Of a stretch of 64,000 nt of DNA, positions 33,001-39,000 are shown one piece after another. The stretch comes from Escherichia coli O157:H7. GTDB taxonomy: Bacteria > Pseudomonadota > Gammaproteobacteria > Enterobacterales > Enterobacteriaceae. Position numbers: made by a program. The number at the start of each line of letters is the position of its first letter. The first letter of the stretch is position 1. The DNA lies in NCBI RefSeq assembly GCF_013167455.1, contig NZ_CP038328.1; one strand, 5' to 3'.

Positions 33001-36000
33001 AAGATATTTTCTTACGGCGTTCACCTGATGTGATCTACAGCATGTTATGCCTTCGTCATACAATCGTTATGTAACTAAGCAACTCATCACCTCTAAAAAT
33101 TATTCTTTGGTGTTATGGCGAGAATCGCGAACCCGGATTATTGTCAAAATATCAGCCTGACTCCCTTCTGGCTGCCAGCCCAAAAACAACACTGATAAAC
33201 GTGAATCCGAGGCAGATATGTTTCTAAACTATTTCGCGTTGGGAGTGCTGATCTTCGTCTTTCTGGTGATTTTTTATGGAATCATCGCGATACATGACAT
33301 CCCTTATCTGATTGCCAAAAAGCGCAATCACCCCCATGCCGACGCTATTCATACGGCGGGCTGGGTGAGCCTGTTTACTCTGCATGTTATCTGGCCGTTT
33401 CTGTGGATCTGGGCGACGCTCTATCAACCGGAGCGTGGCTGGGGTATGCAGTCACATGTTGCGTCGCAGGAGAAAGCGACTGACCCGGAAATCGCCTCAC
33501 TTTCTGACCGAATTTCCCGGCTGGAGCATCAACTCGCCGCCGAGAAAAAGACTGACTATTCCACGTTCCCGGAGATCTAATTATGGATCTATTGATTGTT
33601 TTAACTTACGTGGCGCTGGCGTGGGCGGTCTTTAAAATCTTCCGCATTCCGGTAAATCAGTGGACGCTGGCGACGGCGGCGCTGGGAGGCGTGTTTCTGG
33701 TGAGTGGTTTGATTTTATTGATGAACTACAACCACCCTTACACTTTTACCGCGCAAAAGGCAGTGATAGCGATCCCTATCACGCCACAGGTGACGGGAAT
33801 TGTTACTGAAGTCACTGACAAGAATAATCAGCTTATTCAAAAGGGCGAGGTGCTTTTTAAGCTCGACCCGGTTCGTTACCAGGCGCGAGTTGACAGACTT
33901 CAGGCTGACCTGATGACGGCGACGCATAATATAAAGACGCTGCGTGCGCAGCTCACTGAAGCGCAGGCCAACACCACCCAGGTTTCAGCGGAGCGCGACC
34001 GTCTGTTTAAAAATTATCAACGTTACTTGAAAGGCAGCCAGGCGGCGGTGAATCCGTTCTCGGAACGTGACATCGACGATGCGCGGCAAAATTTCCTCGC
34101 GCAGGATGCGCTGGTGAAAGGCTCGGTGGCGGAGCAGGCGCAGATCCAGAGCCAGCTCGACAGTATGGTTAACGGCGAGCAATCGCAGATTGTGAGCTTA
34201 AGAGCGCAACTTACTGAAGCAAAATATAACCTTGAGCAGACTGTCATTCGCGCGCCGAGCAATGGCTACGTTACTCAGGTACTGATCCGCCCAGGTACAT
34301 ACGCAGCTGCCTTGCCGCTGCGTCCGGTGATGGTCTTCATCCCCGAGCAAAAACGGCAAATTGTCGCCCAATTTCGGCAAAACTCGCTGTTACGTCTGAA
34401 ACCCGGCGATGATGCGGAAGTGGTGTTTAACGCGCTACCTGGGCAGGTGTTTCACGGCAAACTGACTAGTATTTTACCTGTCGTGCCAGGCGGTTCTTAT
34501 CAGGCGCAGGGGGTATTGCAATCATTAACGGTCGTGCCCGGCACGGACGGTGTGCTGGGAACCATTGAACTGGACCCTAACGATGATATCGATGCCTTAC
34601 CCGACGGCATCTACGCCCAGGTGGCGGTTTACTCCGACCATTTCAGCCATGTTTCGGTGATGCGGAAAGTGCTGCTAAGAATGACCAGCTGGATGCATTA
34701 TCTTTATTTGGATCATTGAGGGGGAGGGGGGAGATTATGGAACTTTGCTCCTTGTAAGGACTAATTATTTTTGCATATTACTTCATTAGCTGCGATGATT
34801 TTTCTTTAATATTCATTATGTTAATAAGTTCTGGATGAGTGTGCTCTCATTGGATTTTTTATCCGTCTTGTTCTGCCGCAGGATGAGACTATACATCGTC
34901 GAGATCGCAATGATGATATGAGTTGTTCCTCCTGCGACGGCTCTAATCAAAAAAGAGCAGGAGTGCTTTTCCATCTATTGCGATGATGGCTTTATTATCT
35001 GAAGGATGACAGTCACATTTAAAAAATATTTAATCTATAGATCACAATGTAGGGTCATGGAATATATGTATACAACTATTTTCTTCTTCACTTTTAATTA
35101 TCGTATTCATTATAAAACTAAGTTAAAAAACTCCTGGAGAGTGAGTTATTAATATATTTTTAAATGAAATTAAGTTATCATTCATCGATGCATTTTATAG
35201 AATCATCAATGGCCATAATAGTACTATTAACTCTCAATTTTATATTTTTATCATCACTACAAATATTAACTGAATTTATATCAATGATTTTTTTTATTCT
35301 TATCTTTTATTTTATTTACTGTTTCAATGCAATCAGCGGCAAGTTGGAGTGGATTTAGATTTTTCAGATATGGTCTTATGATCTTTCCCTTACTTAATAA
35401 ATAGCATGTATAGGATTCGGAAAGTCCAGCATCTATTTTGTATCTCATTATATTAGATAAGGATGTGAGAAATTCCTTGTTATCATTCGCAGCCATATAT
35501 GCCAGTCCGAGTTCAGCCTCTGCGGCCTTACAGGCAAAATAGCTTAGTGAACACGCTTTTCGTCCCTCTTTAGTACTGGCTGATATTAGTGCCCATAATA
35601 TTGCTTTGTCTGCCAAATCTAACTCTCTCTGAAATTGTCTTGCAGTAACTGCACTCGCAGAAATAGAGAAAAAAATACAATTGTTAATAACCTTGCCATA
35701 TTTTTTAGTCCGTAACTGTTAATGTGCTATCTGGCTCTGAAAATATTAACTCATTTAATTTTTGCATGTCATTAGATAAACCAGTTATACAACCCTCGGA
35801 ACAGAATCGAGGTCCTAAAGACGGACCAAAAGCGTTTAAACAACTATGTATTGAAAATCCATTGCGATTATAAGTTCCTGTATTAACTGACGGTACTAAT
35901 CGTATGCCGTCAGGTTTTCTATTGCTTGCTCCCGGGTCATTAACATTCCAACTCCATAGGCCTTGAGATATTGGCCATCTATTTATAAATGTGTACAACG

Positions 36001-39000
36001 GGGATTATTTTTACATTGCATATTATTACCAGAAGCGACTGGAATACTAAGCACATCATAAAAATTATCATCACATGGTATATCTGAAACACACGAAAGC
36101 ATACCTAAAGTTATGCTGTATAAACAGGTGGCTAATCCCAAGGGGATCGATTCCAGAAATCGGGTTCAACGGATACTGATAAAAATTCCACCTACCTTCC
36201 AGCCCAATCGGAGCCTGAGTGTTATACCGCCCCTGCTGCGGTTAATGTTACCGATAATAGTTATAGTACAGCCCTGATTCATCATCATACTACTGCTGCG
36301 GCAGTCTGATGAACTATTGCTTTTACGGATTCTCCTTATTCTTCCTTCTATCCATTCGCTTTAGCTTTTTGAGCTCTTGAAGTTTGCTCTTTGCATCAAT
36401 ATTACCGTTATTTACAGCGAATTCCATCCAATAAATAGCTCTATTCAAATTATAATATTCTGATAATGTTGGATTTGTATCTGATAAAAAGACCCCATAA
36501 TTAAACTGCGCTGTAACATTCCCCTGAGATGCTGATTTTTCTAAGTATCGCAATTGTTTGTAAATGTTATTTTTAGTAAAGCAGTAATATTGATATAGTC
36601 GAAATGATGCCTCTGAATCACCATGTTGTGATTTATACTTCAGTTTCATCAACTTTTCTTCACTTAAATCATAGGTCATTGCTGTAGACCCCATCATACT
36701 TTCGTTTTGTTTTATTTTCACATCAGCACCATGCAATTGACAAATAAAAGAGAAATAAAAAAATAGTAACAAGCATGCTTTCATACATCTACAACCTATC
36801 TTATATCACTGGGTTTTTCTGGCGTACCTTGCATATTAGAAATGGGGTGCCCAGATGGCCCATATGTTATCCAATTACCAAGGTCTTTTGTTGTTATAGC
36901 CATTAGATCCTTATTTGAATTAAGGTTCGTTGGTGCTGTTAGCACTGTATCCATTTTTAACTTACCATTAGTTCCTCGCCCCCACCACGTCCATAGCGTG
37001 TCAGGTCCTATTACATTTGTATGTAACTCTTTAGCTAATTGGCTAGCAAATGAATTTTGTCCTTTACCTGTATTACAAGAAAATAACCAAACTGTCATCC
37101 CATCTTTATAATTCCCATCAAATTTAATTAGATATGCTAGATCTTTAGCTGTCATGATACTGCGCGTTGCGGATTCAATAGATGTGGGGGTACCATGCCC
37201 CCCGATTGTGAAAACGCCTGGGATATTAATCTCATCAGCTACAGAATGGATAAGATCACTTTCGGGGTATAAATTTATATCAACCAAACCTTGCGGATCT
37301 ACATTTATGACCGGATTCAACGGATACTGATAAAAATTCCATCCCCCCTTCAGTCCAATCGGATCCTGAGTGATATATCGCCCGTGCAGCGGGTCATAAT
37401 AGCGGTGGCGGTTGTAATACAGGCCGGACTCCTCATCATACTGCTGCCCCGGCAGGCGGATAAGCTGCTGCAGCTGATGCGGGTTCTCTTCATTCAGCAG
37501 GTTGCCCCATTCATCGTATTCTGCGCACCATTCTGTTGCCCCTTCCGCACTGATAAGCGCCAGCGGCAGGCCGCGATGGTCGCAGTGGTACAGGTGGATT
37601 TTTCGCGCCGGCGTGTATACCGGGTCCATCTGGCTTTGCATCTGCGCCACAGTCAGGCCGCACGATGCCAGCCAGCGGCGGCTTTCCTCACTCACCCGGT
37701 CAGCCAGGATTTCACTTTCCAGCCGGTCGAGCATCTGCACCAGCACCGGCGGGAACACCACACTGCCACCGTCTTCGCCGCCGGACTGCTGAAGCGCATC
37801 CGCCAGGCTGCGGCGCTGCGTTTTCGCCAGCTCACCGGTGGCGGTTTCAACCCTGATGAGTGGCGTGAAGCTCCCCGGCTGATAAATCGTCTGGATGCGG
37901 GTTCTGTCGTTCTGTATTGTGGTCAGCCGGTCGCCGTCCCAGCCGTACCAGGTCACTTGCGGTTTCCGTGACAGCGACATCCAGCCCGTCAGGTCCCGTT
38001 CACGTCGCCACACCCGTTTTGCCACCCTGCGGCCCAGCGGGTCGTAAAGATAGCGGCTTTCGACCAGCGGCTCTTCATATTGTGTCCGCGTGTAGTGCAC
38101 CAGCCGGTGCTGACTGTCGTAATGGTACCGGTGAGTCCGCTCATCATCCGTGCGGATAACCCCTTCCGGGATGAGGTCGGTTTTCTCTGTCAGCCTGCCG
38201 TGACGGTCATACCAGTAAAGATAGTGCGCGTCACGGGCGATACGGTTATCCGGCCACATGCTGAGGGTGCTGTCCGGGTGCAGCTCCGGGTCGGGCAGGC
38301 GGTTACCTGCCGGGTCCGTGGCATACGGGATGCGGATATCCAGATTCGCTGCGGTGGTGTGAACGCCGGTCAGCCTGCCGGAGTCGCTGTAGCTGTAACT
38401 CCGGGTCTGGCGCGGGCTGCTGATGCGGATGAGTTCGCCGTTGTCGTTCCAGGTGTAATCGCGGTCATACTGCAGGCTGTTCAGGTGCTGGCTCTGTAAC
38501 TGCCCGGCAGGGGTATAAGCGGTGGTGAGTTCATAACGGCCGAATCTGCGCAGCGTTTTCCGGTGCAGGCGGTCGCGGGTGAAATCCACCAGCGGTGTGT
38601 CGCCGAGCTTCATGCCTGCCAGCCAGCCGCTGCCATAGGTCAGCCATTCCACGGCGGGCAGGCTGTCCGGTATACAGCGGTTCGCCAGCCCCTGCGCGTT
38701 GTAAGCGTGTCTGGTCTCATGCTGCCAGAGCAGTGCTTCCGTCTGCGGGTGATGCACCGTCTGACGCTCACCGGTCAGCCGGCCTTTCTCATCATACCCG
38801 TAATGCACCGTCACCCGGTGCCCTTCGCTGATATGGCTGATGTCTGTCAGCCAGCCGCGTTCGTCATACTGCCAGCGCTCTGCGGTTTCACCCTTCACGG
38901 TGCGGTGCGTGAGGCGGTCTGCTTCGTCATAGTGCCAGTGGGTGACCAGCCCCTCATCCTCGCTGCGGATAAGTTTGCCGGTCAGGTCGTGGTGATAACG

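Follow-up and report, generated by a model that had tools for sequence, protein, structure and literature searches.

Downstream of its full-length rhs gene, the stretch of Escherichia coli O157:H7 DNA that we analysed (64,000 nucleotides of contig NZ_CP038328.1, assembly GCF_013167455.1; hereafter the window) carries a second copy of the 3' end of an rhs core, followed by a toxin-like C-terminal region and a small open reading frame (ORF). This raises the question of whether these elements still make up a working toxin/immunity module or are what is left of one. A query of 2.1 kb that spans the region has a 100% match in E. coli O157:H7 chromosomes, and the RefSeq gene order in the matched genomes is yibF, "RHS element core protein", yibG, an RHS-core pseudogene, an Imm57 pseudogene, yibH, yibI and mtlA. 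Because of this match and this gene order, the window can be assigned to the rhsA locus of E. coli O157:H7. The whole cassette (35178-36310, minus strand) sits downstream of the main rhs gene (36796-41025, minus strand), in the same orientation and without the N-terminal delivery region. Its G+C content falls from 0.62 in the core to 0.33-0.37 in the tip and immunity gene. In RefSeq, both of its parts are listed as pseudogenes: "RHS repeat-associated core domain-containing protein", with an internal stop, and "Imm57 family immunity protein", which is frameshifted. We conclude that the region is very probably a non-functional relic of an orphan Rhs toxin/immunity module. The first-pass annotation had proposed a displaced former toxin tip, i.e., an orphan rhs C-terminal (rhs-CT)/immunity cassette, at 35281-36310. 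We find a core fragment, a core/tip boundary, a dead tip and an Imm57-family ORF downstream of the main rhs, in agreement with this proposal; all the elements it named are present, and only the true edge of the cassette lies slightly beyond 35281, at the native immunity stop (35178).

The core fragment (36161-36310, minus strand; the equivalent of the K-12 pseudogene yibS) was delimited by core alignment, translation and the RefSeq annotation. Read on the minus strand, 36310-36161 aligns without gaps to 37461-37312, the last 150 nucleotides of the main rhs core, with 117 identities in 150 (78%; blastn E value of 1.3e-29 within the window). The core frame is interrupted by three stops (TAG at 36292-36290, TAA at 36250-36248, and TAA at 36244-36242), so that the duplicated core end with in-frame stops was correctly recognised from the start. 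The NCBIfam model RHS_core/TIGR03696 matches the intact allele. In the frame-repaired translation, two changes in the core fragment fall on residues that are invariant in the family: the D of DPIGL is replaced by A and a G of GG by R. The predicted boundary motif PISGIDPLG (PxxxxDPxG) is present at 36137-36163 (minus strand), as seen in the translation and in alignments to intact alleles. The frame is lost exactly at this boundary, through an additional base in GATCCCCTT (36146-36141), and the Leu that should follow the motif is regained only once this +1 shift is corrected.

The tip follows at 35705-36136 on the minus strand (the equivalent of the K-12 pseudogene yibW), with its stop at 35707-35705. 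Its lesions were located to the base by comparison with the intact alleles of three other E. coli. It had been expected that at least two frame changes would be needed to read the tip; there are exactly two relative to the intact alleles, the +1 at the boundary and a −1 in TTA(C)AAAA (35985-35982), where one A was lost. In addition, one 9-bp GGTAATAAT unit is deleted at about 36022, and the conserved GPIP has become WPIS at 35977-35966. Overall, four of the 44 residues that are invariant in nine relatives are altered in the frame-repaired translation; the catalytic H...SEGC is kept. With three stops in the core, two frameshifts, a 9-bp deletion and changes at residues that are invariant in the family, the toxin of the window is irreversibly dead, as the earlier annotation had suspected. 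We also considered programmed frameshifting through the tip and rejected it on account of the three core stops, the lack of an upstream start and the mutated conserved residues.

The intact alleles mark the tip as a probable member of the Tlde1/DUF2778-type L,D-peptidases, on the basis of their alignment, Pfam matches and the family alignment. An intact E. coli tip matches Pfam Tlde1_dom (PF10908) with an E value of 5.3e-7 (30.5 bits), whereas the frame-repaired tip of the window reaches only 0.012 (16.5 bits). Membership in Tlde1_dom thus seems to hold for the ancestral gene and not for the product of the window copy. A search of 1.8 billion representative proteins returned 275 relatives. Among them are several full-length Rhs proteins of 1378-1616 amino acids in which the homologous tip (about 36-53% identity) forms the extreme C-terminus, directly after the DPxG boundary. 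The family alignment shows the invariant blocks ASGNN, GPIPxG, HSC and CSxGC(I/V)T. The tip motif is H-x15-S-E-G-C-I, to be compared with the published H-x(14-17)-(S/T)HGC-h: the catalytic His and Cys are invariant in the relatives, but the middle His has given way to E, K, A or Q. A sequence search of the PDB with the intact tip found no relative, the sole match having an E value of 0.54.

The immunity gene is at 35178-35699 (minus strand), as placed by the RefSeq annotation, alignments and run lengths. It starts five nucleotides after the tip stop, with its native ATG at 35699-35697 and its native stop at 35180-35178. Two homopolymer runs differ in length from those of intact alleles. The T-run at 35675-35669, at codon 8, has seven T (T7) where intact alleles have eight (T8), so that translation from the native ATG runs for 26 codons to a premature TAG at 35621-35619. 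The A-run at 35295-35288, near codon 138, has eight A (A8) where intact alleles have seven (A7), so that the protein ends in ...KNKKNH at a TGA (35283-35281) and loses the last 35 residues, which in the intact reading run to 35180-35178. Between these two slips lies the 111-amino acid ORF that had been proposed as a candidate immunity gene, at 35281-35616 (minus strand). Its start is a TTG two nucleotides past the premature TAG, and it covers residues 29-137 of the 173-amino acid protein. This ORF is 100% identical to K-12 YibV (YIBV_ECOLI) and does belong to the Imm57 family: it matches Pfam Imm57 (PF15596) over model positions 1-100 of 100 (E value of 1.1e-48). The intact 173-amino acid allele matches the same model over residues 30-127 (E value of 2e-44). 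Neither the Imm57 protein nor YibV matches an NCBIfam model.

The 111-amino acid ORF lacks the native start, the signal peptide and the C-terminal tail. The N-terminus of the intact Imm57, MA(K/R)LLTIV(F/L)FFSISA(S/N)A-V, has the n-h-c organisation of a typical signal peptide with an AxA site, and would be cleaved at MAKLLTIVFFFSISASA/V, judging by inspection. Its C-terminus is a conserved Cys-containing tail, ...ICSDDKNIKWRVNSTIMAIDDSIKCIDE. Both the signal peptide and this tail are also found in a homologue with 55% identity. Hence, the immunity gene is broken as well, and the 111-amino acid ORF is best read as an internal fragment that keeps the whole Imm57 domain. The suggestion that the immunity gene may persist does not hold as worded: the T7 and A8 slips break the 173-amino acid gene, which RefSeq lists as frameshifted. 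The analogy with Salmonella Tlde1a and the signal peptide of the intact partner point to the periplasm as the site of toxin action; if the toxin does act there, a cytoplasmic YibV without signal peptide should not protect.

The lesions could in principle have come from sequencing or assembly errors. We rejected this possibility because K-12 MG1655, EDL933 and Sakai have identical lesions, and so do about 3,300 complete genomes. The idea that resequencing might reveal a continuous ORF is contradicted by these thousands of independent complete genomes. The module is present in about 3,700 of 5,426 complete E. coli genomes. In about 3,290 it shows at least 99% identity to the decayed allele of the window, and in about 300 at least 95% identity to the intact-type allele. 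All seven decayed alleles that we examined (window, K-12, HB6, WP4-S18, NCTC86, 98202, and O104:H4) have both the toxin lesions and the T7 run.

Comparison with the rhs loci of other E. coli, as had been suggested, did retrieve intact versions of the tip at the same position. These intact-type modules lie just upstream of yibH and consist of a core-plus-Tlde1 ORF of 267-287 amino acids and a 173-amino acid Imm57. In HCM-27C-1, a protein annotated as "tlde1 domain-containing protein" is followed four nucleotides later by a 173-amino acid "Imm57 family immunity protein". In L007, strain 1190 and similar strains, a continuous ORF of 267-269 amino acids runs from the rhs core through DPLG into the tip. 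DSM 103246 has a 287-amino acid ORF with a late nonsense codon, next to an intact Imm57. In L007 (7995-9204), and also in L006, L008 and L009, the orphan toxin ORF is apparently intact, yet Imm57 is truncated at residue 131, and in L006-L009 the T-run and the A-run lie 5 bp closer together than in the intact allele. In HCM-27C-1 (L002, 4852-6106), a transposase of the ISAs1-family element ISEc1 (H-repeat) lies directly upstream of the orphan and truncates the core fragment. In this strain the main gene bears the annotation rhsB with yhhH; yibA and a further orphan fragment come next. The gene content of the locus is therefore highly variable between strains.

The divergence between alleles provides information on the order in which the parts decayed. 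The window tip differs from all intact tips by a synonymous divergence (dS) of about 0.26-0.28, with a ratio of nonsynonymous to synonymous rates (dN/dS) of about 0.25. This tip allele therefore seems to be old and to have diverged mostly while still under constraint. Between the immunity allele of the window and the intact one of DSM 103246, only two sites in the domain differ, both synonymous. Since the immunity gene is so close to an intact allele and the tip is diverged, the locus seems to be mosaic, its tip and its immunity gene being separated by a recombination break. For the same reason, i.e., its closeness to an intact allele, the immunity gene probably broke later than the toxin. DSM 103246 (L003, 5716-7136) is itself a mosaic: its tip is of the HCM-27C-1 type (dS of about 0.1), and its Imm57 is nearly identical to that of the window (dS of about 0.03) but intact (T8/A7). 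Its tip ORF ends 10 codons early, because a GAG was changed to the nonsense codon TAG.

These observations fit a scenario of displacement followed by decay. The original module would have consisted of a short rhs core segment with PxxxxDPxGL at its end, an L,D-peptidase tip of the Tlde1 type (about 146 amino acids) and a secreted Imm57 of 173 amino acids. By homology, the tip would attack the peptide stems of peptidoglycan in the periplasm of the target cell after type VI secretion system (T6SS)/Rhs delivery, and Imm57 would neutralise it in the periplasm. Recombination through the conserved core would bring in new tips and displace the resident tip, together with its immunity gene, to a position downstream of the full-length rhs, as in the C-terminal displacement model for orphan rhs-CT modules (Jackson et al. 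2009, PMC2935791). Without a promoter-proximal full-length core, the module would fall silent and decay, leaving a 111-amino acid internal ORF (YibV) with an Imm57 domain that could not be exported. In the main rhs of the window, the core corresponds to that of K-12 rhsA and carries the tip that K-12 has as the orphan pseudogene yibJ. Neither rhsA-CT nor yibA is present, and at the junction a core segment of about 450 bp matches both K-12 copies (window, 36796-37765, minus strand; L005/K-12, 5444-5896 and 7198-7650). The fusion of the yibJ tip with shared core at the junction therefore amounts to a tip exchange by core recombination seen at the same locus.

Several observations weigh against this reading of the region as a relic. 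The search for a full-length E. coli Rhs with exactly this tip returned only orphans of at most 287 amino acids, and we infer the attachment of the tip to a full-length Rhs at this locus from the displacement model rather than from an observed case. The Imm57 domain part of the 111-amino acid ORF has no nonsynonymous difference from the intact allele. Given this untouched domain and the full-length Pfam match, some recent or residual function of the fragment has to be allowed for. The premature TAG is just two nucleotides upstream of the TTG, which makes reinitiation conceivable. A transcriptome study published in PNAS in 2024 placed yibV among the AZT-induced, LexA-dependent "no-box" genes of K-12, with a 7.9-fold induction; going by this report, the yibV relic is transcribed under some conditions. 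Finally, the tail-less Imm57 beside an intact orphan toxin ORF in L006-L009 suggests either that the C-terminal tail may be dispensable or that the orphan toxin is never expressed in these strains.

A first alternative is that YibV still works as an orphan immunity protein, with translation from the TTG (perhaps by reinitiation) and with selection maintaining it against Tlde1-armed competitors or for another role. The completeness of the domain, its lack of nonsynonymous changes and the reported induction of the transcript would fit such a protein, as would the occurrence of the 111-amino acid ORF on at least 1000 contigs. We nevertheless regard it as very unlikely. The signal peptide is lost, whereas Tlde1 toxins act only in the periplasm and are met there by periplasmic immunity proteins. 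The start codon is not an ATG, and promoter-like sites are no more frequent than expected by chance (11 versus 10.1 expected between 34700 and 36900, a region in which the same scan found no terminators). The downstream A-run varies freely between 6, 7 and 8, which alters the C-terminus among near-identical strains. The two synonymous and zero nonsynonymous substitutions that separate YibV from its nearest intact allele are too few for dN/dS to be informative as a test of selection. Lastly, the Prokaryotic Genome Annotation Pipeline (PGAP) calls the gene a pseudogene.

The variation of the runs themselves might indicate a phase-variation switch, in which slippage in the T-run and the A-run turns the orphan immunity gene ON or OFF in subpopulations. 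In the seven decayed alleles, in the order given above, the A-run is 8, 8, 7, 7, 7, 6 and "other". Runs of 6, 7 or 8 are found among genomes (L010-L014) whose cassettes otherwise show at least 99% identity; one of these genomes is the cattle isolate HB6, which is 99.8% identical to the window over the cassette. The Imm57 protein clusters fall into length classes of 173, 169, 145, 139 and 111 amino acids. All four combinations of run states (173, 145, 139 and 111 amino acids) occur among closely related alleles, and the ON allele (T8/A7) is only two synonymous domain sites away from that of the window, which is what a switch would produce. Yet runs of 7-8 nucleotides are short for contingency loci, the T7 state is fixed in all seven decayed alleles, and the partner toxin is dead beyond reversal; the pattern is accounted for equally well by neutral slippage in a pseudogene. 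We therefore hold a switch to be more improbable still than a functional YibV. The variation in A-run and protein length looks like what is expected from unconstrained slippage in a pseudogene. Taken jointly, the chance that either a slippage-controlled ON/OFF Imm57 (T7/T8 at codon 8, A6/7/8 near codon 138) or a reinitiated YibV without signal peptide has retained a function is slim. If one of them were true, a latent defence against Tlde1-armed Rhs attackers would persist in most E. coli, K-12 and O157:H7 among them.

That the cassette is silent but usable, and could re-arm the locus by recombination of the orphan core with the main rhs core as for orphan rhs of Salmonella, finds a precedent in the K-12 orphan yibJ tip and yibG that are joined to a full-length core in O157:H7, but its likelihood is close to nil, since just 150 nucleotides of 78%-identical core are left and a crossover would retain the two frameshifts, the 9-bp deletion and the GPIP to WPIS change, tip-internal lesions that essentially refute it.

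The preferred reading, a decayed orphan module, agrees with what is known of similar systems. In K-12, yibS/yibW/yibV (b4650, b4651, b4615) occupy the same position of the rhsA locus, between yibG and yibH, in the same order, and share with the window the same four toxin/core lesions and the two immunity slips. Their annotation is pseudogene for yibS and yibW, "PF15596 family protein" of 111 amino acids for yibV, and then pseudogene for yibU. K-12 differs only upstream, where it keeps rhsA-CT, yibA and the orphan yibJ, whereas the window has a yibJ-type tip fused to the full-length core. The window resembles orphan rhs-CT/rhsI modules in general in that a full-length rhs is followed downstream by a core fragment, the PxxxxDPxGL boundary, a tip rich in A+T and a small immunity ORF. 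In-frame stops within the core piece of orphan modules have also been described (Poole et al. 2011, PMC3150448). Many described modules are intact, whereas the copy in the window is decayed beyond use.

Salmonella Tlde1 is toxic only in the periplasm and has a periplasmic immunity protein, and fusions of Rhs with DUF2778 have been noted (Sibinelli-Sousa et al. 2020; Lorente Cobo et al. 2022, PMC9638812). Only Salmonella Tlde1a is known to have L,D-carboxypeptidase/transpeptidase activity towards peptidoglycan; for the cassette tip, such an activity is predicted by homology. The intact allele has in common with Tlde1/DUF2778 (PF10908) effectors the Pfam match, the His/Cys spacing, the existence of Rhs-fused members and a partner with a signal peptide. 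It differs in that the second His of (S/T)HGC is a Glu and in that the partner is Imm57 instead of DUF2195/Tldi1; the window copy is moreover a pseudogene. The pairing of Tox-LD-peptidase tips on RHS proteins with Imm57 was predicted by Zhang et al. (2012, PMC3482391), and the position of the Imm57 (PF15596) gene, directly after an RHS-borne L,D-peptidase tip, corresponds to this prediction. The Imm57 gene of the window is frameshifted twice, unlike intact members of the family. In the literature that we searched, we found no experimental work on any Imm57 member. A 2024 paper in Nucleic Acids Research still lists yibV as an uncharacterised y-ome gene "surrounded by pseudogenes".

The cassette is thus already known: its K-12 counterparts are named as pseudogenes or genes, RefSeq labels both parts and the toxin/immunity pairing was predicted in 2012. 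In itself it matters little, as a textbook example of the displacement of an Rhs tip and its subsequent decay. YibV is best treated as an internal fragment of a frameshifted 173-amino acid periplasmic Imm57 gene, not as a bona fide gene. The intact alleles offer a ready Rhs-Tlde1/Imm57 pair for the characterisation of Imm57, either of the HCM-27C-1 type (tip ORF and 173-amino acid Imm57) or of the strain 1190 or L007 type (267-amino acid orphan ORF).

The cassette is flanked by other genes of the locus. The main full-length rhs gene (36796-41025, minus strand) encodes 1409 amino acids, according to the ORF list, the RefSeq "RHS element core protein" and the K-12 alignment. Its tip (36796-37329, 177 amino acids after DPQGL) has no match in Pfam or NCBIfam. 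The presumed immunity partner of this tip is the Sel1-repeat protein YibG (153 amino acids; 36323-36784, minus strand; from the ORF list, RefSeq and the K-12 annotation), for which NCBIfam has no matching model. An Rfam search of 33000-38000 gave no match. Between the cassette and yibH, a remnant matching the K-12 pseudogene yibU lies at 34816-35014 (minus strand), as placed by carrying over the K-12 coordinates through a 99.1% alignment, and a 52-amino acid ORF (34816-34974, minus strand) falls inside this stretch. Further along, the ORF list gives a gene of 378 amino acids at 33583-34719 on the plus strand.

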